Part shown: piece after piece, positions 923 to 31,270 of the stretch
How the letters are laid out: every line of letters starts with the position of its first letter
How positions within the stretch are numbered: the first letter of the stretch is position 1
Origin: Candidatus Caldatribacterium sp. SIUC1
GTDB taxonomy: Bacteria; Atribacterota; Atribacteria; Atribacterales; Caldatribacteriaceae
Reading direction: 5' to 3'
Assembly (NCBI RefSeq): GCF_051549785.1
Contig: NZ_CP189974.1
Coordinates: 1,253,491-1,285,490, forward strand
Length of the DNA stretch: 32,000 nucleotides
Notes under the pieces: generated by a model
The model's database searches: none
Told to the model about the DNA's origin: nothing
What the model saw: only the letters and a program-made list of their open reading frames with translations
Program-made: the position numbers and the translations under genes

Positions 923-2182
923 GTGAGAGGGAACTTCCGGTGGGATCAGGAAGTGCTTGCAGGAGTTGCCCTCTTTTTAGAGATTTTCCCTCTTCTCTTT
1001 GTGATTGCGGGGCTTCTTGAGGGTGCAGGAGTACCCTCTCCTCTTTTTGCGGTGATTCTCGTGTCTGCTTTTGGGACGCTCTGTTTCAGCCTCGTCATGG
1101 ACCTGCCCTTTGTGGTGATTCCAGGGCTCAACCTTGTGATGTTCTATGCTTTTGCTTTGTGTGGGGAACTGCGACTTCCCTGGAAGGTGGCCCTGGGGAC
1201 ATTTTTCCTTGGAAGCCTTGTAGCGTTTCTTGCCGCTTCCGTTCCGGGATGGAACCGCTTCTTCCACAGGCTCTCGCCCAACTTTCGTTTTGCCCTTTCG
1301 GGAAGCCTTGGTCTTCTGCTCCTTTTCCGGGGGCTTCTGGAATCGAGGATTCTCGTTCTCCAGGAGTCAGGGTGGTTTGGGTTTGGGGACCTCACCCATC
1401 CCCGGGTCCTGGCGGTGTTCCTCGGCCTTTTCGTGGTCTCAGTGGGATACGGTATCCGCCTGAAGGGGGCCACATGCTTTGGAGTGCTCGCCACGCTGGG
1501 TTTTTCTCTGTGGAGGGATTTATGGTCCTTCGGGATGGGGGGAAATCCTCCCACACTTTCTCCCTCCCTGCTGTTTGCCCTGGATGTTCCCAGAGCACTG
1601 CAGTATGGGACTGTCGGCCTTGCCGGTGTGGTTTCCGTGTTCGTCTTTTTTGAGACCTTTGGGTCCTTGGGCGGGTACCTCATGCGTTTGAGCACCCTTG
1701 GAGTGCAGGGGAATGTTACCAGGTTCTCCCGGGGGCTTCTTCTGGGTACCCTGATGGCCGTTTTCGGGCTCCTCTTTGGGGTCCCCGGGCTTTTTCCGGC
1801 GCCAGAAAGCGTCATCGGGATGGCGGAACGGGGACGACGAGGGCTTGCCGGAGTAGTGTGCGGGGTCTTCCTGCTTCTGAGCCTTTTCGCAGTGCCGTAT
1901 TGTTCCGGTCTTCCCTCCTTCTTTGCCGTTCCGGCCCTCTTTCTTGGGGGAATTTTCGCCCTGGAACCCTTAAGTCGCGTGGATTTTGTGGATGCGTCTG
2001 AGGGCATTCCCGCTGCTCTGCTCCTCGGAATGACTCTGGGGACTTTGTCTTTTGCAGGAGGGATGGCCTTTGGGATTCCGGGTCTTGCTCTCCTTGGACT
2101 TTCCCTGAAAAGGGGCCGGGGGATACATCCAGCAGCGTACCTCCTCTCGGCAGTACTGCTCTGGTGGCTTCTTGTCCGGTGA
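923..2182 (+). CDS. NCS2/AzgA-like (xanthine/uracil/guanine permease superfamily) membrane transporter
   Basis: 419 aa, multiple TM helices, 'IPGLNLVMFYAFALCGELRLPWKVALGTFFLGSLVAFLAA' resembles the AzgA 'GLNAYFAY...W..ALG.VF.SG' region; GTG start preceded by purine-rich SD region. Confidence 0.6.
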   Translation: MRGNFRWDQEVLAGVALFLEIFPLLFVIAGLLEGAGVPSPLFAVILVSAFGTLCFSLVMDLPFVVIPGLNLVMFYAFALCGELRLPWKVALGTFFLGSLVAFLAASVPGWNRFFHRLSPNFRFALSGSLGLLLLFRGLLESRILVLQESGWFGFGDLTHPRVLAVFLGLFVVSVGYGIRLKGATCFGVLATLGFSLWRDLWSFGMGGNPPTLSPSLLFALDVPRALQYGTVGLAGVVSVFVFFETFGSLGGYLMRLSTLGVQGNVTRFSRGLLLGTLMAVFGLLFGVPGLFPAPESVIGMAERGRRGLAGVVCGVFLLLSLFAVPYCSGLPSFFAVPALFLGGIFALEPLSRVDFVDASEGIPAALLLGMTLGTLSFAGGMAFGIPGLALLGLSLKRGRGIHPAAYLLSAVLLWWLLVR

Positions 2183-2210
2183 GGGCTGGGAGGAAATTCG
2201 CAGGAGTGTA

Positions 2211-2239
2211 TTGCAAAGGGGGTGGGAAATGACTATACT
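2211..2239 (+). promoter_or_regulatory. Sigma70-type promoter TTGCAA-17 nt-TATACT
   Basis: -35 TTGCAA at 2211-2216, spacer 2217-2233 (17 nt), -10 TATACT at 2234-2239, just upstream of the decarboxylase gene. Confidence 0.6.
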
Positions 2240-2292
2240 TCATGCGGACCTCGCAGAGAGGTACTTCCTGGGAATCGGGTGATTGTGCATAC

Positions 2293-3447
2293 ATGGGAAA
2301 GAGATTGCGGGTTCTCGAAGAGCGGGCATTTCCACTGGGCGAAGAGCAGATTGAAGAGCTGACCAGCCAGTTTGGTACCCCTCTCCTCATCCTTTTGAGG
2401 GAACGCATTGTCAGGAACTACCGGGCGTTTCAGCGCTTCCTCCCGGGAGTGGAGGTTTTCTACGCGGTGAAAGCTAACCCTCACCCTTCGGTGGTTGGCC
2501 TTCTGGCTTCTTTGGGTTCTTCTTTCGATGTGGCCTCGCAACAGGAAATTGCCCTGGTGACGAGTTTTGGTGTCGCTCCGGAGCGGATGATTTTCGCCAA
2601 TACCGTTAAGCGCCGGGAGGGTATTCTCTACGCCCGGAGGGTTGGGGTTTCGCTCATGACGTACGACAACGAGGAGGAGCTGAAAAAGATTCAGCGGTAC
2701 TACCCCGAGGCGAGGCTTGTTCTTCGCCTGAAAACCCCTTCCAATGGGAGTCGCATCGACCTCTCGTACAAGTTCGGTGCCGAGCCGGAGGAGGCCCTAG
2801 AGCTCCTTTTGAGGGCTCAGGACATGGGGCTCGCCCCCGTGGGCTTGAGCTTCCATGTGGGGTCGCCCTGCCACAATCCTAAAACGTACGCCACGGCACT
2901 CCATATTGTGGAGGAGGTCCTTTTGAAGGCCCAGGCACGGGGTCTTTTCCTTACCCTCATCGATATCGGTGGGGGATTCCCTCTCTACACCTATTCGAGT
3001 GAGGGAGGGCCGGCGAGTCTTGAGATTGTGAGTGAAGTTGTGTATCCACTTCTTGAACCTTTTCTCTCCCGGGGTTTTCGGGTTATTGCAGAGCCAGGCC
3101 GGAGCATTGTGGGGAATGCAGGAGTACTCGTCACCCGGGTGATCGGGAAAGCGGTGCGTTCAGGGAGAATCTGGTACTACCTGGATGATGGGCTCTATGG
3201 AACCTTTTCGGCCATTCCCTTTGATAAGGCTCGCTTTTCCTTCTACGCTCTGAAAGAGAGTGACCAGGAAGTCCTCTGCACCCTTGCTGGGCCGACTTGT
3301 GATTCGCTGGATGTTGTGGCCGAGGACGTTACGCTTCCTCCTCTTGAGGTTGACGACCTTGTGGTGGTCCCGGATATCGGAGCGTACTCCTGGGCTTCGG
3401 CGACAACGTTCAACGGTTTCGACAAGCCCCAGGTGGTCATGGTGTAG
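2293..3447 (+). CDS. PLP-dependent ornithine/lysine/diaminopimelate-type decarboxylase (group IV, alanine-racemase fold)
   Basis: 'FYAVKANPHPSVVGLLASLGSSFDVASQQEI' with PLP lysine, 'FHVGSPCHN', 'DIGGGFP', 'AEPGRSIVGNAG', 'LAGPTCDSLDVVAEDV', 'IGAYSWASATTFNGF'. Track start at 2242 lies at the promoter, so ATG 2293 is preferred. Confidence 0.85.
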   Translation: MGKRLRVLEERAFPLGEEQIEELTSQFGTPLLILLRERIVRNYRAFQRFLPGVEVFYAVKANPHPSVVGLLASLGSSFDVASQQEIALVTSFGVAPERMIFANTVKRREGILYARRVGVSLMTYDNEEELKKIQRYYPEARLVLRLKTPSNGSRIDLSYKFGAEPEEALELLLRAQDMGLAPVGLSFHVGSPCHNPKTYATALHIVEEVLLKAQARGLFLTLIDIGGGFPLYTYSSEGGPASLEIVSEVVYPLLEPFLSRGFRVIAEPGRSIVGNAGVLVTRVIGKAVRSGRIWYYLDDGLYGTFSAIPFDKARFSFYALKESDQEVLCTLAGPTCDSLDVVAEDVTLPPLEVDDLVVVPDIGAYSWASATTFNGFDKPQVVMV

Positions 3448-3458
3448 TGTGCTATAAT
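3446..3458 (+). promoter_or_regulatory. Extended -10 promoter element AGTGTGCTATAAT
   Basis: TGn directly 5' of a perfect TATAAT (3453-3458), overlapping the stop of the preceding gene and upstream of the SufC-like gene. Confidence 0.55.
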
Positions 3459-3477
3459 GGGAAGGGGAGGTAAAGGC

Positions 3478-4209
3478 ATGCTCTACATCGAGCAGCTCAG
3501 GGTGGCCGTTGGCGATACGCTGATTCTCGATGGCGTGAACCTCGAGATCCAAGAAGGAGAAGTTCATGTCCTCCTTGGTCCCAATGGAGCGGGGAAAACG
3601 ACGCTCCTCATGGCCATCATGGGGATGCCAGGGTACAGGATTGTTGGAGGGCGGATCTTCTTCCAGGGGAAGGACATCACAAACCTCGATGTGGAAGAGC
3701 GAGCCAGAATGGGTATTGGCATGGCCTTTCAGAAAATGCCCACCATAAGCGGCATTACGCTGCGGACGCTTGGTCGCCTGGTGCTTGAAAAGCGAGGCTT
3801 GACCGATGCCCTCGAGGAGACGGCGTCGCGGGTAAACTGCCTCTACCTCCTTGATCGGGAGGTGGGTAAGGGCTTTTCCGGTGGAGAGATGAAGAGGGCC
3901 GAGCTTTTCCAGCTCCTTCTGCAGCGCCCTCTCTTCTCCATGGTGGACGAGCCGGAATCGGGGGTTGACCTGGACAGCATTGCCCTCGTGGGTCGGGCTC
4001 TCCGAGAACTCTTTGAGCGGGATCAGGTACGGACAAAAAAACGGTCTGGTCTCATCATCACCCACACGGGGTATATTCTTGAGTACCTCAATGCCGATCG
4101 GGGGCATGTGCTCATGAACGGCCGAATTGTTTGCAGCGGCAATCCCCGTGACCTTTTCGCCGACATCAAGGAACGAGGGTACCAGGAATGTGCGAGGTGC
4201 GAGCGATGA
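3478..4209 (+). CDS. sufC: Fe-S cluster assembly ATPase, SufC/SmsC-type ABC ATPase
   Basis: 'VHVLLGPNGAGKTTLLMAIMGMPGY' Walker A, 'GFSGGEMKRAELFQLLLQRPLFSMVDEPESGVDLDSI' signature and Walker B typical of SufC; SD GGGGAGG precedes ATG 3478 (MLYIEQL). Confidence 0.9.
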   Translation: MLYIEQLRVAVGDTLILDGVNLEIQEGEVHVLLGPNGAGKTTLLMAIMGMPGYRIVGGRIFFQGKDITNLDVEERARMGIGMAFQKMPTISGITLRTLGRLVLEKRGLTDALEETASRVNCLYLLDREVGKGFSGGEMKRAELFQLLLQRPLFSMVDEPESGVDLDSIALVGRALRELFERDQVRTKKRSGLIITHTGYILEYLNADRGHVLMNGRIVCSGNPRDLFADIKERGYQECARCER

Positions 4210-5450
4210 AGGTTCAGGAGGAGTACCTGCGAGACCTGAGGGAACGCGCGGAGAAGGCGCTGGCAAAAAGAGCCTCTCTGGGACCGGATATCGACCTCTC
4301 TCAGTTCTACCTCTGTTCCCCCCGGGAACGGGTTGAGGATGTCCGGGAGATTGAGGACCAGCTGAGAGAAGCAGCGCTCTACGCGGGGGTGGAGCTTGAG
4401 GGAGAGAAGGCCGCTACGTACCTCCAGGTGGACCGCTCAGCGGTGTACGAGCGGGTGCAGCGGGCGTTTCAGGGGAAGCTTGAGATTATGAGCTCTCAGG
4501 AGGCTCTGCGGAAGTACCCGGAGCTTTTAGAGTACTGGTGGGGTCTTGTTCCCGTCGATGCCGACAAGTACACGGCCTTTGCCGAGCTCTGCCCAACAGA
4601 GGGGTACTTCATCAGGGTGTTCGCCCACACAAAGGTAGAAATCCCCCTTCAAGCCTGCCTTTTGATGTCAGAAAGGGCACGGGTGCAGAGTGTCCACAAT
4701 ATCGTCATTCTTGAAGAAGGGGCTGAGGCAAATCTCATCACTGGGTGTGCCTCGGTGCGGGGAAACGAGAGCGGGGTCCATATCGGGGTGAGCGAGTTCT
4801 ACCTTGGGGATAACGCCCGCCTCACCTTCACCATGGTACACAACTGGGGAGAGGCCTTCCATGTCCGTCCCCGAACTGCGGCAAGACTGGGGAAGAACGC
4901 CTTTTTCAGCAGTACCTACGTACTTTTGAAGCCCTTGGCTTCCATTCAGGCTTTCCCTCAGGTTTTCCTTGAGGGCGAAGGAGCGCAAGCGACGTTTCAG
5001 AACATCGTCTTTGCCAAGGGGAACTCCTATATTGACCTTGGGTCCACCCTTCTTCTAAAGAACCAGGGTTGTCGGGGAAGCTCTATTTCCCGGGTGTGCG
5101 CAACAGACGAAGCGCAGGTTTTCGCCCGTGGCCGGCTCATTGCCTACCACGATGAGGTTCAGGCTCACCTGGAGTGCAAGGGTATGCTCTTTTCTCCCAG
5201 AGCCCAGATTGTCTCTGTGCCGGAGCTTGAGGTGTACGGAGCCCCCAGGGCCCGGCTGTCCCACGAGGCAGCGGTGGGTCCTTTTGAAGAGGAAGCGGTG
5301 AATTACCTCAGGGCAAGGGGATTGAAAAGGGAAGAAGCTCTGTCGCTGCTTACCCAGGGATTTCTGAACCTTGACCTTCCTGGTCTTCCTGAGGCGCTTC
5401 GGCGGTACATCGAGGAAATCATCCGGGTGACATCCCGGGATGTGTTATAG
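4206..5450 (+). CDS. SufB/SufD family Fe-S cluster scaffold protein (SmsB-like)
   Basis: 'FISP...HLECKGMLFSPRAQIVSVPELEVYGAPRARLSHEAAVGPFEEEAVNYLRARGLKREEALSLLTQGFL' is the SufB/D C-terminal core; ATGA overlap with the sufC stop. Confidence 0.9.
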   Translation: MKVQEEYLRDLRERAEKALAKRASLGPDIDLSQFYLCSPRERVEDVREIEDQLREAALYAGVELEGEKAATYLQVDRSAVYERVQRAFQGKLEIMSSQEALRKYPELLEYWWGLVPVDADKYTAFAELCPTEGYFIRVFAHTKVEIPLQACLLMSERARVQSVHNIVILEEGAEANLITGCASVRGNESGVHIGVSEFYLGDNARLTFTMVHNWGEAFHVRPRTAARLGKNAFFSSTYVLLKPLASIQAFPQVFLEGEGAQATFQNIVFAKGNSYIDLGSTLLLKNQGCRGSSISRVCATDEAQVFARGRLIAYHDEVQAHLECKGMLFSPRAQIVSVPELEVYGAPRARLSHEAAVGPFEEEAVNYLRARGLKREEALSLLTQGFLNLDLPGLPEALRRYIEEIIRVTSRDVL

Positions 5451-5462
5451 GGGTGCAGGTGT

Positions 5463-5696
5463 TTGGCGGTTCAGGCGTATATCCTCATCCAGGTCCAGGC
5501 CGGAAAGGCTCAGGGAATCAAAAAGGAGCTGAGTCAGCTTCCGTATTTCCTCCGGGTTGACCGTATCATGGGACCTTTCGACCTCATTGCCCTTGTGGAA
5601 GTGGAGAGTAATCGGGAAATTGGGGAGGTTGTGCTCAAGGAAATTCAATCCATGAACGGAGTCAAAAGAACCCTGACGTGCCCGGTTATTCCCTAA
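5463..5696 (+). CDS. Stand-alone Lrp/AsnC ligand-binding (RAM/ACT-like) domain protein
   Basis: 77 aa 'AYILIQVQAGKAQGIKKELSQLPYFLRVDRIMGPFDLIALVEVESNREIGEVVLKEIQSMNGVKRTLTCPVI'; no HTH. Confidence 0.8.
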   Translation: MAVQAYILIQVQAGKAQGIKKELSQLPYFLRVDRIMGPFDLIALVEVESNREIGEVVLKEIQSMNGVKRTLTCPVIP

Positions 5697-5701
5697 AGAC
5701 C

Positions 5702-6277
5702 ATGAAACCGAAAGGTCCTATCTCTCCCCGGGAAGAGGAAATTCTGTCCTTCATCACCCGTTACTGTCAGGAGCGGGGCTATCCTCCTACGGTTCGGGAG
5801 ATTGGAAAGGCAGTGGGTTTGCAATCGTCGTGCAGCGTCCATTACCACCTTCGGAAACTCGAGGCCAAGGGTTTCATTCGCCGGAAACCGGCAAAGCCCC
5901 GGGCCATTGAGCTGGTCTCCTCAAGCGAAGAGAGTCTCCCTTCAGAGGAAATCGTCTTCGTACCCCTTCTCCGTGGAGTGACCCAGGATCGGGAGGGAGT
6001 ATGTCTTGAGTTCACCCGCGCCTTTTTCCCTTTCCCCAGACACTTCGTCGGCGAAGGGGAGTACTTCGTCTTTCGGGTGCAGAATGGGGCGTTCAGCCGC
6101 TGGCACATCCTCGAGGGAGATTACCTCCTTGTGGAGCGGGGAGAGACCTTTGGAGATGGAGCGTTGCTTTTTCTCGTGAGTCAGGGGAGGGTGTTCCTGG
6201 AGCGGGATGACCTCTGGGAAGGAGAGGGTTCGGGGAACGTCATCGGGAGAGTCGTTGGGGTTTGGCGGAAGCTCTAA
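5702..6277 (+). CDS. LexA-like transcriptional repressor with degenerate peptidase domain
   Basis: N-terminal LexA HTH 'ISPREEEILSFITRYCQERGYPPTVREIGKAVGLQSSCSVHYHLRKLEAKGFIRR'; C-terminal S24-like fold 'HILEGDYLLVERGE...VIGRVVGV' but the catalytic motifs are not conserved. Track start 5678 precedes the likely ATG 5702. Confidence 0.8.
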   Translation: MKPKGPISPREEEILSFITRYCQERGYPPTVREIGKAVGLQSSCSVHYHLRKLEAKGFIRRKPAKPRAIELVSSSEESLPSEEIVFVPLLRGVTQDREGVCLEFTRAFFPFPRHFVGEGEYFVFRVQNGAFSRWHILEGDYLLVERGETFGDGALLFLVSQGRVFLERDDLWEGEGSGNVIGRVVGVWRKL

Positions 6278-6315
6278 AGGGGTGATGGGCTCTGGTCATC
6301 ACGGAAGAGATACGG

Positions 6316-6711
6316 GTGGAGACGAAAGGCCATACTGATATCGTTCCGCTGACGGAAGAGGTGGCGAAAGTCCTTGAGCGGTCCGGTCTTCGTGCGGGGA
6401 TTCTCTGTCTTTTTGTTCCTGGAACAACGGCAACCCTTACGACGACCGAGTTCGAGCCAGGACTCGTCAAGGACATCAGGGATTTCTGGGAGCGGGTTGC
6501 GCCGGTTTCTCATTTCTACGAGCATAACGCCCGCTGGCAGGATGGGAACGGGTACGCCCATGTGCGAGCCCAATCTTCCGGTCCGTCCCTTGTCCTACCC
6601 TTTGTGGACGGGAAGCTCCTCCTTGGGACATGGCAGGACATCGTCCTTGTGGACTTCGACAACCGTCCCCGCCTGCGAACCATCATCGTCCAGATCGTGG
6701 GGGAACCCTGA
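6316..6711 (+). CDS. YjbQ/UPF0047 family protein
   Basis: 'TKGHTDIVPLTEEVAKVLERSG...GILCLFVPGTTATLTTTEFEPGLVKDI...HNARWQDGNGYAHVRAQSSGPSLVLPFVDGKLLLGTWQDIVLVDFDNRPRLRTIIVQIVGE' is the YjbQ signature. 5' end uncertain. Confidence 0.9.
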   Translation: METKGHTDIVPLTEEVAKVLERSGLRAGILCLFVPGTTATLTTTEFEPGLVKDIRDFWERVAPVSHFYEHNARWQDGNGYAHVRAQSSGPSLVLPFVDGKLLLGTWQDIVLVDFDNRPRLRTIIVQIVGEP

Positions 6712-7859
6712 TGGAGGAGTCCTTTGTTTTTCGCCTGCCCCAGGAGATTTACTTTGGCCCGGGTGAGGGGAGACGGGTTGGGGAGCATCTTGAGCGTTTC
6801 GGGAAGCGCCCCCTTGTGGTTGTGGGGCAGCGTTTTGCCCGGGAATCGGGAATCCTCAAAGACATCCTCGGCGCCCTGGCCCGGCGTGGCCTTGAGGCAG
6901 TGGTTTTCAGCGGAGTCCCTCCCGAGCCCACCCTTGAGGTAGTCGATGAGGGGATAAGGGTGGCAAGGGAAGCCCGTTGCGACAGCGTTGTGGCTCTGGG
7001 AGGGGGGAGTGTCCTGGACTGTGGCAAGGCCGTTGCGGGAGTCCTGCCAAACGGGGAAAGCGTTGTCCCATACTTTGAGGGAGCACCTCTTACTCGTCCC
7101 GCGCTTCCCTGGATTGCCCTGCCTACCACTGCGGGAACGGGTTCAGAGATGACCAATAACGCCGTTCTGACCGATGCCACGAGAAAGCTCAAAAAGAGTC
7201 TGCGGAGTCCTTTTCTGGTTGCTCGGGTGGCCATCATCGACCCCACCTTCACCTATTCCCTCTCCCCCTATCGCACTGCGGCAAGCGGGGTTGATGCGCT
7301 GGTTCAGGCTATCGAGGCCTACACGAGCCCCCGGGCGAATGCTGTGACCGATGTGCTTGCTCTTGAAGCCATACGTCTTCTCTGGGAGTACCTGCCCCGG
7401 GCAGTTCGGGAAGGGGAGAACACCTTTTTCCGGAAACAGGTGGCCAAGGGCAGCATGCTGAGTGCCATGGCTTTCGCCAATGCCTCCTCCGGGGCCTGTC
7501 ATGGTCTTGCCCACATGGTGGGACCGGAATTTGCCATTCCCCATGGGGAGGCTTGTGGTCTGCTCTTGCCTCCAGTCATTCGCTTCAACAAGGAAGCGCT
7601 TAAGGAAAGGTACCGGGATATCGTCCTTTGTGTGGGCCTTCAGGGCGGCGAATGCGAGGACTGGGGAGAGCTTCTTGCACGGGCTTTTGAGGACTTTGTG
7701 CGGGGAGTGGGACTCCGGACGAGACTGCGGGATTTTGGCGTTCCTCGCGAAGCGCTGGGCGGGGTGGTGCGGGAAGAACGTATCGGGCGGAGTATCCTTG
7801 AGAATCCCCGTCCGATGACTCCGGAAGACCTTCAAGCGCTCCTTGAGGAGGTATGGTGA
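6711..7859 (+). CDS. Iron-containing alcohol dehydrogenase family protein
   Basis: 'VVALGGGSVLDCGKAVAG', 'PTTAGTGSEMTNNAVLTD', 'SGACHGLAHMVGPEFAIPHGEACGLLLPPVIRFN' metal-binding His motifs; TGATG overlap with the upstream gene. Confidence 0.9.
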   Translation: MEESFVFRLPQEIYFGPGEGRRVGEHLERFGKRPLVVVGQRFARESGILKDILGALARRGLEAVVFSGVPPEPTLEVVDEGIRVAREARCDSVVALGGGSVLDCGKAVAGVLPNGESVVPYFEGAPLTRPALPWIALPTTAGTGSEMTNNAVLTDATRKLKKSLRSPFLVARVAIIDPTFTYSLSPYRTAASGVDALVQAIEAYTSPRANAVTDVLALEAIRLLWEYLPRAVREGENTFFRKQVAKGSMLSAMAFANASSGACHGLAHMVGPEFAIPHGEACGLLLPPVIRFNKEALKERYRDIVLCVGLQGGECEDWGELLARAFEDFVRGVGLRTRLRDFGVPREALGGVVREERIGRSILENPRPMTPEDLQALLEEVW

Positions 7860-8203
7860 GGAGGGAGAATGTGGAGATCGTCTACGAGAAAGACAGGGCT
7901 TTCCGTGAAGGTGACTGGGGCATCAAGTACCTCTTTCGAGGACCCCGTCTGGACTGTGGTGTGGTGTATTTGAAGCCGGGAACCAGCATGGGCGCCCATT
8001 ACCACCGAGAAGTCGAGGAAACCTTCTTTATCCTTGAAGGTCAGGGGATCCTCAAGGTCAATGGCCAGGATGTTCCTGTTGTAGCGGGAATGGCCCTTCG
8101 AGTGGAACCGGGGGAACGGCATGACCTTCTGGCCCTGGATGGGCCTTTGCGGGGAATTTTCGTGAAGGTTCCGTATCTTCCGGAGGATAAGGTATCGTGT
8201 TAG
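7853..8203 (+). CDS. Cupin domain protein
   Basis: 'GTSMGAHYHREVEETFFILEGQGILKVNGQDVPVVAGMALRVEPGERHDLLA' cupin motifs 1 and 2; GTG 7871 after GGAGGG is an alternative start. Confidence 0.85.
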   Translation: MVRRENVEIVYEKDRAFREGDWGIKYLFRGPRLDCGVVYLKPGTSMGAHYHREVEETFFILEGQGILKVNGQDVPVVAGMALRVEPGERHDLLALDGPLRGIFVKVPYLPEDKVSC

Positions 8204-9069
8204 CCTGGGAAGTCCTGCAGGAGCTCTCCGAGCGCCTGAAGTCCTGTTCCCTCTGCCCCCGGCGGTGTGGTGTTAACCGTACGAAGGGGGAACGGGGATT
8301 CTGTGGTGGGGGGATGCTTCCCCGGGTGGCGAGTTTCCATCCCCACTTTGGGGAGGAGGAAGTCCTCAGCGGGTACCGGGGTTCGGGAACCATTTTCTTT
8401 TCAGGGTGCAATATGGCCTGCGTGTACTGCCAGAACTACACGATAAGCCATTTTCGCGAGGGGATTGAGGTCACCCCCCTTGCTCTTGCTGCTATGATGC
8501 AGTCTCTGGAGCGGCAGGGGTGCCACAACATCAATCTCGTCACGCCAACACACTTTGTTCCACAGATTTTCGAGGCCGTTGACCGTGCCCGCCAGGAAGG
8601 TCTCCGCATCCCCATCGTCTACAATACCAGTGGTTACGAGGATCTTGGGGTTCTCCGGCTCCTGCGGGGTCTTGTGGATATCTATCTTCCCGATATGCGG
8701 TACGCCCGTGAAGAAAGTGCGGTACGGTATTCCCAGGCACCCCGTTACCCTGAAGTGTGCCGGGAAGCCATCCGGGAGATGTTCCTGCAGGTGGGCAATG
8801 TGGTGCTTGACGAAGAGGGTGTCGCCAGCCGAGGGCTTATCGTCCGCATTCTCATCATCCCTTCTCTTGAGGAAGAAGCCAAAGAAAATCTCCGCTTCCT
8901 TGCCACAGAGATCTCCCGGGACGTTTTCGTTACGCTTCTTCGGCAATACCGTCCTCTTTACCGGGCGCAGGACTTTCCGGAGATTGCCCGTTCTGTGAGT
9001 GACCGGACCTATCAGGAAGTTCTGGAGTACGGCAGGTCCCTGGGACTTCGTAACTTCATTCTCCAGTAG
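8197..9069 (+). CDS. Radical SAM protein, PflX-like (pyruvate formate-lyase-activating-enzyme-like)
   Basis: 'CSLCPRRCGVNRTKGERGFCG' N-terminal Cys cluster followed by radical SAM 'FSGCNMACVYCQNYTIS' CxxxCxxC. Confidence 0.85.
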   Translation: MLAWEVLQELSERLKSCSLCPRRCGVNRTKGERGFCGGGMLPRVASFHPHFGEEEVLSGYRGSGTIFFSGCNMACVYCQNYTISHFREGIEVTPLALAAMMQSLERQGCHNINLVTPTHFVPQIFEAVDRARQEGLRIPIVYNTSGYEDLGVLRLLRGLVDIYLPDMRYAREESAVRYSQAPRYPEVCREAIREMFLQVGNVVLDEEGVASRGLIVRILIIPSLEEEAKENLRFLATEISRDVFVTLLRQYRPLYRAQDFPEIARSVSDRTYQEVLEYGRSLGLRNFILQ

Positions 9070-9085
9070 AAGGGAGGATGGGAAC

Positions 9086-9607
9086 GTGAGGGAAGCTATC
9101 CTGGAAGTGGCACGACTCATGGTGATTGCGGCAAAAACGGCACCGAAGGCAGTGGGGAAAGATTTTGTGACTGTGACCATTCTTGAGGGGGAAGCAGTGC
9201 GGAAACTCGGGGAGGCCATGATCCGATACGGGGAGGAAAACGGGATCCGGGGATTTATCCGTGACGGGAAAAACGTCCTTGACTCCCAGGCAGTGGTGCT
9301 CGTGGGTCTGAAAGATGCTCAGCCTGCGGGGCTCAACTGTGGAGCGTGTGGCTTTGAACGGTGTGCGGACCTTGTTCCTGAGGAACAGAGGGAATTCAAG
9401 GGACCTCAGTGTGTCATGCGACTCCTGGACCTGGGGATTGCCCTCGGTTCGGCGGTGAAGGTAGCCTCCCTTTTAAATGTGGACAACCGCATCATGTACC
9501 GTATTGGTGTTGTGGCAAGACGGGAGGGGCTGGTGTCCGATGACGTGGTCATGGGCATTCCCCTTTCGGCGTGGGGAAAGAACATCTATTTTGACCGGAA
9601 AGAATAA
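9086..9607 (+). CDS. Ferredoxin domain-containing protein (DUF2148-like)
   Basis: 'LNCGACGFERCADL...GPQCVMRLLDLGIALGSAVKVASLLNVDNRIMYRIGVVARR...VVMGIPLSAWGKNIYFDRK'; SD GAAGGGAGG before GTG 9086; track start 8999 lies inside the preceding gene. Confidence 0.75.
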   Translation: MREAILEVARLMVIAAKTAPKAVGKDFVTVTILEGEAVRKLGEAMIRYGEENGIRGFIRDGKNVLDSQAVVLVGLKDAQPAGLNCGACGFERCADLVPEEQREFKGPQCVMRLLDLGIALGSAVKVASLLNVDNRIMYRIGVVARREGLVSDDVVMGIPLSAWGKNIYFDRKE

Positions 9608-9618
9608 GGGGTGGGGAT

Positions 9619-10440
9619 ATGCAATTTGGGTTACGCATCCAGGATATCATTGGCCTTGTCCTTGCCGTGCTCATTGTGGCCATCCTCATCAGTATTATTC
9701 TCATCATCCGAGAGAACGCCCGGGAACGAAGGCTCTGGCGGGAGGGAGAGTACGAGGAAGAGGAACCGGAAAAACCGCGCTTGCGGCGAACAGGAGCTTC
9801 CCGAAAAGAGGAAGAGCCCGAACGCGTTTTGAGGAGGCCACGCTTTGCTGTTCAGCGTGAAGCACAGAGAGAAGAGGAGGTGGCAGAAAGCGTTGAACCC
9901 CTGGAGTCTCAGGAGGCGGTTGAGACCGTCCCTTTGGAGGAAATTCGAAAGGAAGAACCAAAAGAAGAACCCAGACAGGTTGTGCTTGAGCGAGCGCTGC
10001 GAAAGCTCGAGGACCTGGGTCTAGATTTTGGAGCACTGAAGCCGGTCTTCAGTGAGGATGTCATTCACTTTTCGCCTCTTTTGTGGGAAGTCAAAGAAGA
10101 GGTGAAATCGGGCAGGGAACTCGGTGACATTGTGATCCACACCGTTTTTCGGAGTCTCCCTGGGTACTCTGCCGATGAAATCGTCGAGCGGTACCGCTCC
10201 GGGGACGTCTCAGTGGTCGAGAAGCTCGAGGCCCGGGTGAAGACCAGGGAAGGTCGAGATTACCTCATCGCCACAATGAACCTTGCCCATTTCCAGGTTC
10301 CGGAACTCGACCGCCAATTTCGCCAGGGGAATCTCCGGGAGGACGAGTACGAACTCCTTAAGGCGTTGAAGTTTGTGGACCGGGCGACCAAAAAGGACTT
10401 CGCCCGGATGGTCTATGCCCGGATCATGGACGAAGACTGA
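9619..10440 (+). CDS. Hypothetical membrane-anchored protein: single N-terminal TM, charged linker, C-terminal soluble domain
   Basis: MQFGLRIQDIIGLVLAVLIVAILISIILII TM segment, Glu/Arg-rich linker (about residues 35-120), then a folded-looking 150-aa domain; no family recognised. Confidence 0.75.
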   Translation: MQFGLRIQDIIGLVLAVLIVAILISIILIIRENARERRLWREGEYEEEEPEKPRLRRTGASRKEEEPERVLRRPRFAVQREAQREEEVAESVEPLESQEAVETVPLEEIRKEEPKEEPRQVVLERALRKLEDLGLDFGALKPVFSEDVIHFSPLLWEVKEEVKSGRELGDIVIHTVFRSLPGYSADEIVERYRSGDVSVVEKLEARVKTREGRDYLIATMNLAHFQVPELDRQFRQGNLREDEYELLKALKFVDRATKKDFARMVYARIMDED

Positions 10441-10443
10441 GAC

Positions 10444-10605
10444 GTGAGGTACCCTGTTCCATCTCGGTTCTCCTTCCAGCGTCGGAGAGGGCGAAGGTGG
10501 TGCATTCTGGTCTTTGTCCTCTTGTGCGGTCTTTTCCTGCTCTTCCTCCTCCTTGGCCTCCTTTTTCCTCTTTCTGACGTGTTTCTCCCCCTGAGTGTGC
10601 TATAA
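10444..10605 (+). CDS. Candidate 53-aa single-pass membrane protein, not in the ORF track
   Basis: Translated by hand: VRYPVPSRFSFQRRRGRRWCILVFVLLCGLFLLFLLLGLLFPLSDVFLPLSVL*; GTG starts 3 nt after the preceding stop; basic N-terminus then strongly hydrophobic helix; TAA overlaps the following TATAAT. Confidence 0.55.
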   Translation: MRYPVPSRFSFQRRRGRRWCILVFVLLCGLFLLFLLLGLLFPLSDVFLPLSVL

Positions 10606-10606
10606 T
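10594..10606 (+). promoter_or_regulatory. Extended -10 promoter element AGTGTGCTATAAT
   Basis: 13 bp identical to 3446-3458; located 34 nt upstream of the coiled-coil gene start. Confidence 0.55.
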
Positions 10607-10640
10607 TCAAGGGAAGCCCAAGAACGGAGGGGGTGTCACC

Positions 10641-13136
10641 TTGAAGAACTGGCTTGCCCTTATCGTCGCTTTTCTTGCTCTTGGCGTCTCGCTTTTTGTG
10701 ATTGTCTTTTTGACCAGTGTCTCTCGGGACGTCCGGGGTATTGCCGGAAGGATGGTAGCAGTGGAAAAAGGTCTGGAGGAAGCTCGTACAGTTCCCCAGA
10801 GCGTGGTCGAGATGGGGCAGAGGATTGCCGACCTTGAGGGGCAGCTCAAAACGGTGAAAAACCTTGAAGAGGAAATCCGTACCCTTTCTGCTACCCTGGC
10901 CGAGAAAGGCCAAACTCTTGAGGACCTTTCCCGGGCAAGAAAAGCCATGGAATCTTCTCTAGCTCGTCTTGGGGAGGATCTGAATACGTGGGCCACAAAA
11001 ATCACGGCTCTCGAAGAGACGATGAAGGAGCTGGAGGTTCTTAAGGAGTCCCTGAAGAATCTGGAGCAGAGTATTACCGCTCTGAGTATCGATGAGCGCT
11101 TCTCCGCACTTCTTGCATACTTCGAAGGGAAGGTTCGGGAACTCGAGCAGACAGTGGCAGACCTTTCGGGGAAACTGGAAACCTCCGTGGCACTCTCTCA
11201 GGAAGTGGAAGGGCTCAGGAGCACCCTTGAGGCGACTCAGAGTGATGTCCAGCGCCTCCAGGGGGAAATGCGTGAGCTCCTTGAGGAGAAGACCAGAGCG
11301 CTCCAAGATGTTGGGAAGGCGGTGGCCGCCCTTGAAGAGAAGGTCCTTGCTATGGAGCAGGGTATTGCTACCCTGAGTATCGATGAGCGCTTCTCCGCGC
11401 TTCTTCGGTACTTCGAGGGGAAAATTCAGGAAGTGCGGGATACCCTTTCTGCGCTTCAGCAAGAAGTGGCTGCCTGGAAAGAAAAGGCTGTTCCCCTTGA
11501 GGTTTTCGAGAAGGCTCTGCGGACCCTTGAGGAGAAACTCCAGTCTCTGGAGAAAGAGCTCACTGAGTATGAGAAAAGGACCGAGGAGAGCGTGGGGACC
11601 ATCCGTGAGCTTCTTGGGGAAGTCCAGCTCGCCCAGAAGGACTACGGTAGGAGGCTTGAAGAAAGCCTCCTGACCTTCTCACAGAAAATCGCCGCTCTTG
11701 AAGAGGAACTCCAGGGTCTCTCGCAGTCGGTGGCATCTTTTGAGGGAAACTTCGAGAAGGTCCAGGTGACATTTCAGGAATTCTCCCAGAGACTCAGCAG
11801 TCTCCAGGAGAAACTCTTGGGTCTTGAGAGCGGTATGGATACCTGGAAAGAAACCACCCTGCAGTCTCTCCGAAAGGAAGTCGAGGCGTTAGCTGCTGCC
11901 GTACCTTCGCCTCAGGATCTCGAGGAGGTCCGTGCCGAGGTCGTCACGCTCCTTGAGGAGCGCGAGTTGCTCAGGGCACGTCTCCAGGAGCTTCGAGCAG
12001 AGCAGGCGAATATCGTTCAGGAACTGGAGGGGAAAGGGAAAGATATTCTTGCCTTAAAGGAGAAAATCGCCACGCTCTCGGAGAAAGAAGAGGTAGCAAA
12101 CCTGAGGGCTCAGCTTGCAACGCTTTTGGGTGTCCAGGGTGACCTTGAGGATGCCCTCAGGAAGACCGAAGAGAACATGCGGGCCCTTGAGGCATCCTTG
12201 CGGGCGAAAGATGAAGAGGTTGCTGGAGCTCTTGAGAAGGTCTTTGCTCAGGTTCAGGAGCTTGCCCAGAGTCTGGAATCTTTTGGAAAACGTCTTGAGG
12301 AGGTTCACGCGCAGGGGCAAGCGCTTTCTCCGGTTCGGGAAATCCTTGCCGAGATTCAGAAGACCCTCGGGCTTTTTGAGGCTCGCCTTGCGGAAATCGA
12401 AAAGTTCAGTAAAGAGATGCTCAGAGAAGACCTAAGGACCAGGGTCCAGACCATAGAGGGTGAAATTGCGACCTTGCGGGGAGAGCTGGGAAAGGTTGCC
12501 GAAGAGTCACGAGCCTCCATTCCAGAGTTGCAGACCATTCGAAGGCTTCTCGAAAACCTTGAGAAGGACAAAGCCTCTCTTGAGGAACGCATCAAAGAAC
12601 TCTACAGCCTCCTTGAGAGTGGCAAGAAGCGTGAGGAAGTCGAGAAAGACATCGAGTCGTTGATCAAGGAGAAGGAAGCTCTGCAGGAAGACATCAAGCG
12701 TTTTGCCCAGGAGCGGATGGACCTTGAGGGAGAGCTTGGTCGCAAAAAGGAAGAGCTTGCCCGTATTGACCGGGAACTTGAGGTTTTGCGGACTCAAAAG
12801 GGTTCGGCAGAACGTATCCAGGAGCTTGAGAAAGAGCGAAAGAGAGCCGAGGAGGAAATCGGCAGGCTCCAGCAGGAGCTCAAGGACAAAGAAGACCAGA
12901 TTGAGGTTCTGCAGCGGAGGAATGAGGAGCTGTCTGCTCAGCTTGAGGAGGCAAAAAAGTTCACCTCTTACGTCATCCTGCCCTGGGACAGTCTCTGGAA
13001 GATTGCTCGCCGGTATTACCGGGATGGTCGGAAATGGACAATCATCTGGGAAGCCAACCGGGAAAAGATTCCCGATCCTGAGAAACTCCAGCCCTATGTT
13101 GAGATTCGCATTCCTCGTGTTCCTGAGAATTCCTGA
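10641..13136 (+). CDS. Long coiled-coil membrane-anchored protein with C-terminal LysM-like domain
   Basis: 831 aa; TTG start after GGAGGGGG SD; N-terminal TM 'WLALIVAFLALGVSLFVIVFLTS'; heptad-rich Glu/Leu/Lys repeats throughout; C-terminal 'YVILPWDSLWKIARRYYRDGRKWTIIWEANREKIPDPEKLQPYVEIRIPR'. Confidence 0.85.
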   Translation: MKNWLALIVAFLALGVSLFVIVFLTSVSRDVRGIAGRMVAVEKGLEEARTVPQSVVEMGQRIADLEGQLKTVKNLEEEIRTLSATLAEKGQTLEDLSRARKAMESSLARLGEDLNTWATKITALEETMKELEVLKESLKNLEQSITALSIDERFSALLAYFEGKVRELEQTVADLSGKLETSVALSQEVEGLRSTLEATQSDVQRLQGEMRELLEEKTRALQDVGKAVAALEEKVLAMEQGIATLSIDERFSALLRYFEGKIQEVRDTLSALQQEVAAWKEKAVPLEVFEKALRTLEEKLQSLEKELTEYEKRTEESVGTIRELLGEVQLAQKDYGRRLEESLLTFSQKIAALEEELQGLSQSVASFEGNFEKVQVTFQEFSQRLSSLQEKLLGLESGMDTWKETTLQSLRKEVEALAAAVPSPQDLEEVRAEVVTLLEERELLRARLQELRAEQANIVQELEGKGKDILALKEKIATLSEKEEVANLRAQLATLLGVQGDLEDALRKTEENMRALEASLRAKDEEVAGALEKVFAQVQELAQSLESFGKRLEEVHAQGQALSPVREILAEIQKTLGLFEARLAEIEKFSKEMLREDLRTRVQTIEGEIATLRGELGKVAEESRASIPELQTIRRLLENLEKDKASLEERIKELYSLLESGKKREEVEKDIESLIKEKEALQEDIKRFAQERMDLEGELGRKKEELARIDRELEVLRTQKGSAERIQELEKERKRAEEEIGRLQQELKDKEDQIEVLQRRNEELSAQLEEAKKFTSYVILPWDSLWKIARRYYRDGRKWTIIWEANREKIPDPEKLQPYVEIRIPRVPENS
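11061..11430 (+). repeat. Intragenic near-identical segment repeated at 291-bp (97-codon) offset
   Basis: ctgagtatcgatgagcgcttctccgc(a/g)cttctt...tacttcga(a/g)gg(g)aa at about 11082 and again at about 11373; encodes 'SIDERFSALLAYFEGKV' and 'SIDERFSALLRYFEGKI'. Confidence 0.8.
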
Positions 13137-23427: not shown

Positions 23428-24444
23428 ATGTGGAATAAACGATTGGGGATTGACCTTGGCACGGCAACGACGCTCATTTACCTCCATGGACGGGGGATTG
23501 TGCTCAACGAACCTTCGGTTGTGGCCATTGCCAAAGACTCCAATCAGATTCTCGCGGTGGGAAAAGAAGCCTGGGAGATGATTGGGAAGACCCCGGAACA
23601 CATTGTGGCCCACCGTCCCCTACGCGATGGAGTGATCAGCGATTACGAGATCACCCGGAAGATGCTGGCCTACTTCATCCAGCGGGTATGCGGGCGAAGT
23701 CTTTTCAAGCCTGATGTCGTGGTCTGCGTTCCCTCAGGAGGTACCGAGGTTGAAAAGCGAGCAGTGCTCGATGCAGCGTACCACGCGGGAGCCCGTAAGG
23801 CGTACCTCATTGAGGAGCCTATGGCAGCGGCTCTGGGGGCTGGCCTCGACATCACGGGCCCTTCAGGGAATATGGTGATTGATATTGGAGGAGGGACCAC
23901 GGATGTTGCTGTACTCTCCCTGGGGGGGATTGTGGTCAGCCAGTCCGTGCGGGTGGCAGGGGATAAGATGGACGAGGCCATTATCCGTCACCTCAGGAAA
24001 AAGTTCAATCTCCTTATCGGTGAGAAAACTGCGGAGATGATTAAGATTGAGATCGGGTGGGCTGTGCCCCCTCCGGAGGATAAGGTAGTCCGCGTCAAGG
24101 GGCGGGACCTTGTCTCGGGACTTCCCAAAGAGATTCTCCTCAGCGCTTCAGAGGTCTACAAATGCCTCACCGAACCCCTCTCATACATTGTCGAGGCAGC
24201 ACGGATGGTACTCGAGCATACACCTCCTGAGCTTGCTGCCGATATTGGAGAAAAGGGTATCTGCCTCACCGGGGGAGGATCGCTCCTTCGGGGCATTGAT
24301 GAGATGCTGGCCAAGGCTCTGGGAACTCCTGTGTACGTTGCCGAGGATCCGGTGTCCTGTGTTGCTCTCGGGGCAGGAAAGGTTCTCGATTACCTGAAGT
24401 TTCTCCGAAACGGCTTTCTCTATACCAAGGGGAGGAATGCATAG
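23428..24444 (+). CDS. mreB: Rod shape-determining protein MreB
   Basis: 'RLGIDLGTATTLIYLHGRGIVLNEPSVVAI', 'VVCVPSGGTEVEKRAV', 'NMVIDIGGGTTDVAVLSLGGIV', 'GICLTGGGSLLRGIDEML'. Confidence 0.95.
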   Translation: MWNKRLGIDLGTATTLIYLHGRGIVLNEPSVVAIAKDSNQILAVGKEAWEMIGKTPEHIVAHRPLRDGVISDYEITRKMLAYFIQRVCGRSLFKPDVVVCVPSGGTEVEKRAVLDAAYHAGARKAYLIEEPMAAALGAGLDITGPSGNMVIDIGGGTTDVAVLSLGGIVVSQSVRVAGDKMDEAIIRHLRKKFNLLIGEKTAEMIKIEIGWAVPPPEDKVVRVKGRDLVSGLPKEILLSASEVYKCLTEPLSYIVEAARMVLEHTPPELAADIGEKGICLTGGGSLLRGIDEMLAKALGTPVYVAEDPVSCVALGAGKVLDYLKFLRNGFLYTKGRNA

Positions 24445-24447
24445 CTT

Positions 24448-26031
24448 TTGTGGTGGCGTAGAGTCCTCCTGATTTTCTGGGTTCTGGGCCTTGTCCTCTG
24501 TGCTCTTCCGGTCTGGGGTGGGGAGATTTCCATTTTCCCCTTTTCGGCGATCCGTAAAGGTATGAAGGCCACCGGGAAGACGGTTCTGTACGGAACAGAG
24601 GTGCAGGAGTTTTCTCTCGAGGTCATCGATGTTGTGCAGGCGAAGGACATCACAGACAGCTACTTTGTTGTCCTCGTCACCGACGAGAAAATTCGCAGCC
24701 TGGGGGGTATCCTCGCCGGGATGAGCGGAAGCCCGGTATATATCCGGGGGAAGATTGCAGGAGCGCTCTCTCACAGCTTCGAGACACAGGATCACCTCGT
24801 GGGTGTCGTTACGCCCATTGAGGCCATGCTCAAAATATGGAAAGAGGAGGAAGTACTTGCTCCCCTTGGGAAAGAGACATCGGTGGTGTTCTGTTTTGGA
24901 ATGGGCGATAGGGCGTGGTCTCGCCTGAGGGAGCGCCTTGGGGAAACGTACGCTTTGAGGAAGGTGCTCGCTTTTCCACGTCTTTTCCCGGGGAGGTCCG
25001 AGAAGCAGGCGGCTCCTCTTGAGCCCGGGAGCGCCATAGGGGTGCAGCTCGTGACTGGGGATGCAGAGATTGTGAGTATTGGGACTCTGACTTTGCGGGA
25101 TGGGGATCGGTTCCTGGCGCTCGGACATCCCTTTCTCCACCGGGGGAAGGCGCAGTATTTTCTCTCCTCGGTGTACGTGAATTTCAGTCTGAAGGGAGAT
25201 GAGTTCCCCTTCAAGGTGGGAACGCCCATCGAAATTGTGGGTGTGGTAGAGGAGGATCGTAGCGTCGGCATAGCAGGGCGGTTTGGGGTTTTCCCGAAGA
25301 CAACGGAAGTTACCATAGGGGTAAAGGAGGGGACAAGGAGGCGGGATTTTCACTTCTCGGCGGTTCAGGAAGAGGACATTCTCGTGGATTTCCTCCCCGA
25401 GCTTCTCCTTGACGCCATTGATCGGACCATCGACCGCCAGTCTCCAGGAAGTGTTGATCTGAAGTTCCGGATAACGGGAGAAAATCTCAACCTTGAAGAT
25501 GAATTTTTCTGGGTCAGTGAACCGGATGTCGCGACTTTTGCCTCGAACACGTTTCGCCGGGTACTCGAGGCATTCCTGAAGAATCCCTATCAGCCGGTGA
25601 ACGTAGCAGAAATCGCTCTTGAGGTCGAGGTATTTCCTGAAGTCCAGCGAGGATGGATTCTCTCTTGCGATTTCCCTCGGATTGTGAAGCGGGGTGAAGT
25701 TGCCGCAGGAAAGGCTACGGTGTTCCTGTATCGCCAGGGCATACGGGATGTTTCCCTCCAGGTGACTGTGCCTTCTGACTTTGCCCCGGGTGAGGCGGAG
25801 ATCGTAGTTCGGGGGAGAGGAAGGAGTAGCGGGGAGTCCCAGGAGGGGACGTTTACCGTGGATTTTCAGGAGTACCTCAATCAGAGGCTTGACGAGCTTC
25901 GGAGTGACGGTGTGGACCTTGAGATTCTCGCCAAAGGTAGCATTCCCCAAAAGACCACCTATACCAGGACCCATGTGTTTCTTCCATTTGTGCTTGAAGG
26001 AGATGCTTCGAGCAAGGTATGGGTAAACTGA
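24448..26031 (+). CDS. SpoIVB/S55-type serine peptidase domain protein
   Basis: Signal peptide-like N-terminus; 'KIRSLGGILAGMSGSPVYIRGKIAGALSHSFETQDHLVGVVTPIEAML' S55 signature around the catalytic Ser. Confidence 0.8.
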   Translation: MWWRRVLLIFWVLGLVLCALPVWGGEISIFPFSAIRKGMKATGKTVLYGTEVQEFSLEVIDVVQAKDITDSYFVVLVTDEKIRSLGGILAGMSGSPVYIRGKIAGALSHSFETQDHLVGVVTPIEAMLKIWKEEEVLAPLGKETSVVFCFGMGDRAWSRLRERLGETYALRKVLAFPRLFPGRSEKQAAPLEPGSAIGVQLVTGDAEIVSIGTLTLRDGDRFLALGHPFLHRGKAQYFLSSVYVNFSLKGDEFPFKVGTPIEIVGVVEEDRSVGIAGRFGVFPKTTEVTIGVKEGTRRRDFHFSAVQEEDILVDFLPELLLDAIDRTIDRQSPGSVDLKFRITGENLNLEDEFFWVSEPDVATFASNTFRRVLEAFLKNPYQPVNVAEIALEVEVFPEVQRGWILSCDFPRIVKRGEVAAGKATVFLYRQGIRDVSLQVTVPSDFAPGEAEIVVRGRGRSSGESQEGTFTVDFQEYLNQRLDELRSDGVDLEILAKGSIPQKTTYTRTHVFLPFVLEGDASSKVWVN

Positions 26032-29552: not shown

Positions 29553-29569
29553 AAGGGGGAGAAGAGCCG

Positions 29570-31246: not shown

Positions 31247-31270
31247 ATGTTTCAGGGAAGGAGAGTGTCC

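Follow-up and report, generated by a model that had tools for sequence, protein, structure and literature searches.

A LexA-family protein without the autoproteolysis residues in Candidatus Caldatribacterium and other Atribacterota

The LexA-family protein encoded at positions 5702–6277 of a 32,000-nucleotide (nt) stretch of Candidatus Caldatribacterium DNA (the window) is without the residues of LexA autoproteolysis: the positions of the scissile Ala-Gly bond, of the nucleophilic serine and of the general-base lysine are all substituted. The gene lies on the plus strand, as do all features described below unless stated otherwise, and runs from an ATG start to a TAA stop (included in the coordinates), giving a product of 191 amino acids (aa). 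The window belongs to the Atribacterota, with 99% protein identity to a Candidatus Caldatribacterium metagenome-assembled genome (MAG) and 94% identity between the window and Ca. C. saccharofermentans OP9-77CS. Judged from the aligned sequences, this protein shares the trait with every Atribacterota homologue examined (hereafter LexA-At, gene lexA-At). It seems likely that LexA-At is an Atribacterota descendant of LexA that has turned into a pseudo-protease and works as a stable, non-cleavable dimeric repressor.

Homology to LexA and the former active site

By sequence and by predicted fold, LexA-At is homologous to LexA far beyond chance. Pfam PF01726 (LexA_DNA_bind) matches residues 6–68 with 80.1 bits (1.1e-22) against a gathering cutoff (GA) of 23.7, and the NCBIfam equivalog model for lexA, TIGR00498, matches with 103.1 bits (1.5e-29), stopping at residue 157 and missing its cutoff of 110.95. 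Pfam PF00717 (Peptidase_S24) scores 18.0 bits over residues 106–162, under its GA of 23.3. The best solved relative by sequence is the LexA of T. maritima (3k2z, 5e-18), followed by those of E. coli, P. aeruginosa and M. tuberculosis. The ATG start agrees with most orthologues and with the near-identical NCBI record WP_427365732.1 (191 aa), while an in-frame GTG at 5678 offers an alternative start that would add 8 residues (199 aa). NCBI names this record 'LexA family protein', which accords with a score below the TIGR00498 cutoff.

An AlphaFold2 (AF2) model, built on an alignment of 72 sequences with a mean predicted local distance difference test score (pLDDT) of 87.7, consists of a three-helix winged helix-turn-helix (wHTH), a linker disordered at residues 75–80 and an all-beta C-terminal domain. 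When this model is compared with the PDB by Foldseek, LexA structures rank first (3k2z, 1e-13). The N-terminal DNA-binding domain (residues 6–68, 5717–5905), with helices at 9–25, 31–38 and 43–55 and a wing at pLDDT 92–95, superimposes on the E. coli LexA DNA-binding domain 1lea with a template modelling (TM) score of 0.87, and together with the PF01726 match this bears out the initial annotation of a LexA-type wHTH. The variable interdomain linker (residues 73–86, 5918–5959) falls in poorly conserved columns, with pLDDT below 50 at residues 75–80. The remainder (residues 87–191, 5960–6274) is a degenerate S24-like beta domain, presumably a dimerisation module, which superimposes on LexA C-terminal domains with a TM score of only 0.55–0.64 and a root-mean-square deviation of 4–6 Å.

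The former active site was located in a MAFFT alignment that combined the window protein and 17 Atribacterota homologues with E. coli LexA and five canonical LexAs of Gram-positive type. The strings on which the initial annotation had built its case are all present in the translation, namely PLLRGVTQDRE (residues 88–98), RVQNGAFSRWHILEGDY (125–141), VFLER (164–168) and VIGRVVGV (179–186), and its three claims of loss hold in the alignment. Within the first string, Q95-D96 (codons CAG GAT, 5984–5989) occupy the columns of the E. coli scissile bond A84-G85; these columns read Ala-Gly in all six canonical sequences and in 0/18 Atribacterota. A130 (GCG, 6089–6091) stands in the column of the nucleophile S119, which is Ser in 6/6 canonical sequences and Ala, Thr, Gly, Lys or Arg, never Ser, in the 18 Atribacterota. 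In VFLER, E167 (GAG, 6200–6202) stands in the column of the general base K156, where the canonical sequences have Lys (6/6) and the Atribacterota have Glu (Caldatribacterium), Arg, Gly or Val (Lys in 0/18). The three losses recur in P0254 and P0256, two additional representatives of the Atribacteraceae/Atribacteria, and LexA-At is also substituted at the neighbouring active-site positions G117, M120, E152 and T154 (E. coli numbering).

A dyad elsewhere in the domain, which would have spoken against the loss of self-cleavage, was sought in the same alignment and found no support. In the C-terminal domain of the window protein there is only one lysine (K190, Arg in most orthologues) beside three serines (132, 160 and 177), none of the latter conserved across the phylum; indeed, nowhere in this domain is a Ser, Lys, Cys or His conserved among the 18 aligned Atribacterota sequences. 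Because its serines and lysines are not conserved, the domain has no alternative Ser/Lys dyad available. From the absence of Ala-Gly, Ser and Lys we infer that self-cleavage of LexA-At, whether RecA-stimulated or alkaline, would be impossible. Alignment with characterised LexAs and the predicted model thus describe a LexA-type protein with all three features substituted, and the earlier suggestion that it is controlled by something other than RecA-stimulated self-cleavage follows from the substituted cleavage site, nucleophile and general base as seen in alignment, profile scores and structure model.

The companion claim that the fold-defining residues remain can be kept in part. The hydrophobic core and the C-terminal strand GRVVGVWRKL of the S24-derived domain are retained, as are the structural residues F122, G139, D140, G182, G186 and R189. 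Hydrophobic residues and Gly make up most of the positions conserved throughout the phylum (F108, F111, F122, L137, G139, D140, Y141, L142, L155, W172, G182, G186, W188 and R189). The claim does not extend to a stretch of about 20 residues following the strand that formerly carried the lysine, which is deleted in the Caldatribacterium clade and kept by other Atribacterota, nor to the PF00717 score, which lies under threshold.

Distribution, descent and constraint

Homologues at 67–99% identity to the window protein come from Caldatribacterium, and those at 38–49% from other Atribacterota, including Caldatribacteriaceae and, by profile search, Atribacteraceae. Below these the list of matches turns abruptly to canonical Firmicutes-type LexAs at 33–44% identity in which PF00717 is present. 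The Atribacterota sequences group as a single clade among Firmicutes-like LexAs in a neighbour-joining tree, a topology consistent with a single ancestral loss of the cleavage residues; monophyly in this position also suggests, from alignments that included no cyanobacterial sequence, that the loss was independent of the cyanobacterial one discussed below.

The Atribacterota alignment was further used as a profile against the full database, and the best 150 representatives were re-aligned. Ala-Gly, Ser and Lys are all kept by 79 of them, 29 are without all three, and the rest are without one or two. Full-length LexA homologues from outside the Atribacterota without Ala-Gly, Ser and/or Lys include P0267, P0271, P0272, P0283, P0291, P0297, P0329 and P0359; named examples of such degenerate proteins are WP_054632052.1 of Paraclostridium sordellii and MDA8063972.1 of a Thermaerobacter MAG. 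As far as these sequences tell, degenerate LexA homologues are not rare in sequence space, and they are essentially undescribed.

The DNA-binding domain of LexA-At is almost invariant across the phylum, and its recognition helix SSCSVHYHLRKL carries two phylum-invariant residues in the motif SSCSVHYH, C44 (codon 5831–5833) and Y48 (5843–5845). C44 is present in all 23 aligned Atribacterota sequences and also in P0024, P0254 and P0256; in 144 other LexA-like representatives the same column holds Ser in 112 and Cys in 4. The Y48 column is Ala, Ser or Gly outside the Atribacterota. Such a pair of changes in the recognition helix may reflect an altered DNA specificity or a thiol switch.

Constraint on the gene was estimated by pairwise comparison (NG86) of six Caldatribacterium orthologues. 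The ratio of nonsynonymous to synonymous substitution rates (dN/dS, or omega) is lowest in the wHTH (about 0.04), higher in the C-terminal domain (about 0.13) and highest in the linker (about 0.30). Fifteen related loci carry the gene; its open reading frame (ORF) is intact in 14 of them, and the products are 38–99% identical to the window protein. Both domains appear to be maintained, given purifying selection, intact ORFs and a near-invariant DNA-binding domain, and decay of the gene is therefore unlikely. The single disrupted copy, in the single-cell genome of Ca. Caldatribacterium californiense (L007, region 10349), has a 1-nt deletion (GTCGGCG to GTT-GCG) that frameshifts lexA-At; this is probably a sequencing error, because a full-length 191-aa protein of Ca. 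C. californiense (P0123) is on record.

Genomic setting and mode of action

In the window lexA-At is the fifth gene of a same-strand array with tiny gaps, in the order ODC, sufC, sufB/D, asnC77, lexA-At, yjbQ, Fe-ADH, cupin, radical-SAM and DUF2148. The ODC gene (2242/2293–3447) is followed by sufC (3457–4209, PF00005), sufB/D (4188–5450, PF01458) and asnC77 (5463–5696), and yjbQ (UPF0047; 6316–6711, PF01894 5e-32 and TIGR00149) lies directly downstream of lexA-At. About 20 kb of DNA was accessible around each orthologue, and within it the array is conserved at phylum depth (L012, L013/14, L015/16 and L024). The sufCB pair stands upstream of lexA-At in most loci, the exceptions being L019 and L025, and yjbQ stands downstream in 13 of the 14 lexA-At-carrying loci, with none detected in L006. 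In L019, where sufCB is absent, asnC77, lexA-At, yjbQ and Fe-ADH stay together behind an upstream region of their own of 270 base pairs (bp).

A sigma-70-like promoter (TTGCAA-17-TATACT, 2211–2239) lies upstream of ODC and is the sole plus-strand site of its kind within 2000–10700; the same element, conserved across the phylum, recurs upstream of ODC in L003, L005, L006, L012, L013 and L015, and the plus-strand scan of 2000–10700 found no promoter near lexA-At. The ODC promoter probably drives ODC-sufCB-asnC77-lexA-At-yjbQ and the genes beyond. Terminator-like hairpins are no more numerous around lexA-At than chance would give. The promoter overlaps the mechanically called ODC start at 2242; translation probably begins instead at Met18 (2293), for a product of 384 aa, and several ODC orthologues have lengths close to this, at 381–384 aa.

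The gene immediately upstream of lexA-At encodes AsnC77, a 77-aa stand-alone Lrp/AsnC ligand-binding (RAM) protein (PF01037, 2.5e-10) with the RAM domain at residues 7–76 and no helix-turn-helix. It is homologous to the solved stand-alone RAM proteins of T. thermophilus (2djw, 8e-10), Pyrococcus (DM1; 2e1a/2z4p) and S. tokodaii (2zbc), which it resembles in length class (about 75–92 aa) and in having a RAM domain only; it differs from them in its pairing with lexA-At, seen in Atribacterota only. We know of no description of a LexA-type partner for any of these proteins. The nearest relatives of AsnC77 outside the phylum are 78-aa actinobacterial stand-alone RAM proteins, encoded in two contexts on four contigs (L020–L023) beside a thiL-like AIRS-domain gene and near ddl, with no LexA nearby. 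The model TIGR00149 that matches YjbQ is named 'secondary thiamine-phosphate synthase enzyme YjbQ', which together with thiL makes a link to thiamine that may be coincidental.

If LexA-At is a non-cleavable repressor, its intact winged helix would still bind a specific DNA operator and its C-terminal strand would keep the dimerisation role it has in LexA. The gene would be co-transcribed with housekeeping genes from the promoter about 3.5 kb upstream, and its translation is probably coupled to that of the preceding asnC77. Neither RecA-stimulated nor alkaline self-cleavage would take place, and because the residues of self-cleavage are absent, activity would be set otherwise than by self-destruction, whether by expression level, by a ligand or partner (AsnC77 is the obvious candidate) or by modification of Cys44.

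Several observations weigh against this interpretation. Operator binding and dimerisation are both deduced from conservation only, and the C-terminal domain, short of about 20 residues and reaching a TM score of only about 0.6 to its LexA counterparts, has been remodelled, so that its dimer interface may differ. Operator searches were negative: the SOS box GAAC-N4-GTTC with at most one mismatch gave 14 matches in the window against 17 expected, GWWC-N4-GWWC gave 8 against 7.6 expected, and neither inverted-repeat searches nor phylogenetic footprinting of the intergenic regions and orthologous promoters revealed an operator-like palindrome, the −35 and −10 elements being all that they returned. 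The dN/dS values are rough, with dS saturated at about 1.6. In addition, an Atribacterota MAG (GCA_012517635.1; L025, 6231–6703) has kept asnC77 and Fe-ADH, and lexA-At, yjbQ and sufCB are missing from its 12-kb locus; the gap is an AT-rich, non-coding stretch of 472 bp without a LexA remnant, so that lexA-At is either dispensable in this lineage or has moved.

Two other candidate operators were discarded. GTAC-N4-GTAC occurs 12 times in the window against 2.3 in shuffles (other spacings 4–10), with all matches inside ORFs of at least 110 aa, and it was rejected because GTAC itself is commoner than dinucleotide shuffles predict. The palindrome GTAC-AGGC-GTAC at the start of asnC in L019 merely spells the codons for V-Q-A-Y, and the window is without it.

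Other explanations can be set against a non-cleavable repressor descended from LexA. LexA-At might be a paralogue freed for other regulation, with a canonical cleavable LexA encoded elsewhere running the SOS response. In favour of this, degenerate LexAs are common (the 29 of 150 representatives without all three features), and Firmicutes such as P. sordellii and Thermaerobacter supply some of them, in a phylum whose LexAs are otherwise canonical in these searches. However, no named Atribacterota protein with catalytic residues was found among the top 120 matches; the closest canonical LexA (P0029) is divergent from a LysM gene (yneA-like) in the typical Firmicutes arrangement; and the position of the lexA-At locus is conserved across the phylum, as it would be for a vertically inherited orthologue. 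We regard a paralogue as unlikely. AsnC77 might instead signal in trans, binding an amino acid or metabolite and contacting the C-terminal domain of LexA-At, so that the two together would make up a split regulator responding to ligand in the manner of Lrp. Pyrococcus DM1 is an example of a stand-alone RAM protein that forms hetero-oligomers with full-length regulators, and asnC77 and lexA-At are adjacent in 14/14 lexA-At-carrying loci, 5 nt apart in the window and 5–24 nt in every such locus, including L019, where the pair stays joined to yjbQ and Fe-ADH when sufCB is lost. AsnC77 is also far better conserved than LexA-At (59–96% identity across the phylum, dN/dS 0.008). Against this, the whole 10-gene block is syntenic, and adjacency within it is thus not specific evidence; asnC77 persists without lexA-At in L025; no RAM-LexA fusion was found among 244 AsnC77 homologues or 150 LexA-At profile matches; the actinobacterial relatives adjoin thiL and ddl; and LexA-At is without a RAM domain for RAM-RAM pairing. 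We consider such a partnership distinctly unlikely. A broader proposal, which we hold to be quite improbable, is that Atribacterota are without any cleavable LexA and that their sole orthologue was rewired as a metabolite- or redox-responsive regulator, its former protease domain serving as a docking and dimerisation module for a signal received in trans from AsnC77 and/or through Cys44. Were it true, this would amount to a 'LexA-head / Lrp-tail' split regulator, for which no precedent has been described, in a phylum without the classical SOS switch.

A redox or Fe-S sensor, in which oxidation or modification of Cys44 releases the protein from DNA and ties it to the upstream suf genes, would account for the invariance of C44 in a column that is mostly Ser elsewhere and for the position of lexA-At behind sufC-sufBD in most loci. 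Such a sensor would have a single conserved cysteine per monomer and no partner cysteine, the link to Fe-S is weakened by loci such as L019 in which sufCB is not adjacent, and the C44 change, along with Y48, may do no more than shift DNA specificity; we consider it very unlikely. It is just as improbable that LexA-At still responds to DNA damage and is inactivated by other means, such as sequestration on RecA filaments or cleavage in trans by a second protease. Removal by a separate protease is known for other repressors, and the AF2 model keeps the strand-loop-strand hairpin of the former cleavage region (strands 84–96 and 99–112), but the window has neither an SOS-box-like site nor a DNA-repair gene (topoisomerase I is its sole DNA-metabolism gene), and lexA-At is without a promoter of its own for autoregulation. 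Finally, lexA-At could be a functionless gene in decay. Its product is less conserved than those of flanking genes in the same genomes (67–79% against 80–97% identity), the gene is lost in L025 and L007 has its 1-nt deletion; yet ORFs of similar length remain intact over phylum-deep divergence, omega is 0.04–0.13, the DNA-binding domain is near-invariant, and the frameshift lies in a single-cell assembly of a species with a 191-aa protein on record. Decay is accordingly hard to credit at all.

Related systems and other features of the window

A clear precedent for an uncleavable LexA exists in Synechocystis sp. PCC 6803, whose LexA (sll1626), without Ala-Gly and Ser, acts as a stable repressor of diverse non-SOS genes; no cleavage of it is observed in vivo, and phosphorylation may tune its activity (PMC3091678, PMC7567884). 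LexA-At resembles this protein in combining a LexA wHTH with an S24-derived C-terminal domain in which the Ala-Gly site and the serine are replaced, and is a new example of a kind already known from it. By analogy, LexA-At would work as the Synechocystis type is thought to work. The loss in Atribacterota goes further: Synechocystis LexA has lost only Ala-Gly and the Ser of the dyad (PMC3091678, PMC7567884), whereas LexA-At has also lost the Lys (E167) and, in the genus Caldatribacterium, the hairpin of about 20 residues. It is also broader, since the cyanobacterial loss was reported in one strain among 26 lexA-bearing genomes analysed (PMC3091678) and the Atribacterota loss is seen in every homologue examined. 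Unlike Synechocystis lexA, lexA-At follows a RAM-domain gene within a long block of housekeeping genes.

With canonical LexA (TIGR00498; E. coli 1jhf/3jso, T. maritima 3k2z and the B. subtilis type) LexA-At shares the two-domain architecture, the length class and the C-terminal G-x-V-G-V-x-R strand, and its DNA-binding domain is close to the Firmicutes-type consensus GYPPSVREIG.AVGL.SSSTVH.HL.RLE.KGFIRRDP.KPRAIE. It differs in having neither scissile bond nor Ser/Lys dyad, in the changes at E152, T154, G117 and M120, in scoring below the TIGR00498 and PF00717 thresholds, and in the lack of any promoter of its own or SOS box among the sites found. The P. sordellii and Thermaerobacter proteins are built like LexA-At (190–230 aa, with a wHTH, a GILxGD motif and the terminal strand, and without Ala-Gly, Ser and/or Lys); both are uncharacterised and fall outside the Atribacterota clade in the neighbour-joining tree.

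In the textbook account the bacterial SOS response is switched by self-cleavage of LexA, and lineages that keep LexA without cleavage would be cases of a damage sensor recycled into an ordinary transcription factor, for which the worked example so far is one cyanobacterial strain. The Atribacterota are a widespread, mostly uncultured group of the subsurface and of hot springs, and their degenerate LexA, conserved, under purifying selection and at a fixed operon position, would make a second and much deeper case. This raises the question of how, or whether, Atribacterota induce DNA repair. Within the literature library searched, LexA in Atribacterota is discussed nowhere, the sole co-mention being in an unrelated review of syntrophic propionate oxidisers, and a wider search on the SOS response added nothing. 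Several database records name these proteins 'repressor LexA', which implies an SOS function that the sequences do not support; they should properly be called LexA-family, non-cleavable regulators.

The profile search also returned LexAs of 280–314 aa (P0255, P0257, P0258, P0260, P0276 and P0319). Considered as possible RAM-LexA fusions, they turned out to consist of two tandem LexA-type winged helices and a canonical S24 domain, with Ser and Lys intact in 6/6 and Ala-Gly in 5/6 (Val-Ser in P0276). To our knowledge this tandem double-wHTH architecture has not been described.

Elsewhere in the window, an 831-aa protein is encoded at 10641–13136, whose only Pfam matches are sub-threshold and of coiled-coil type, and unannotated proteins of 784–963 aa occupy the same position in the distant Atribacterota loci L012, L013 and L015. 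Two minus-strand ORFs of 597 and 568 aa (24181–25974 and 29531–31237) mirror real plus-strand genes, for an S55-like peptidase and for BamA/Omp85; no Pfam model matches either ORF, and both are presumably spurious. The plus-strand region 24448–31840 is an outer-membrane biogenesis cluster with a TamB-like protein of 1177 aa, BamA/Omp85 with POTRA repeats and OmpH/Skp, which is consistent with a diderm envelope.

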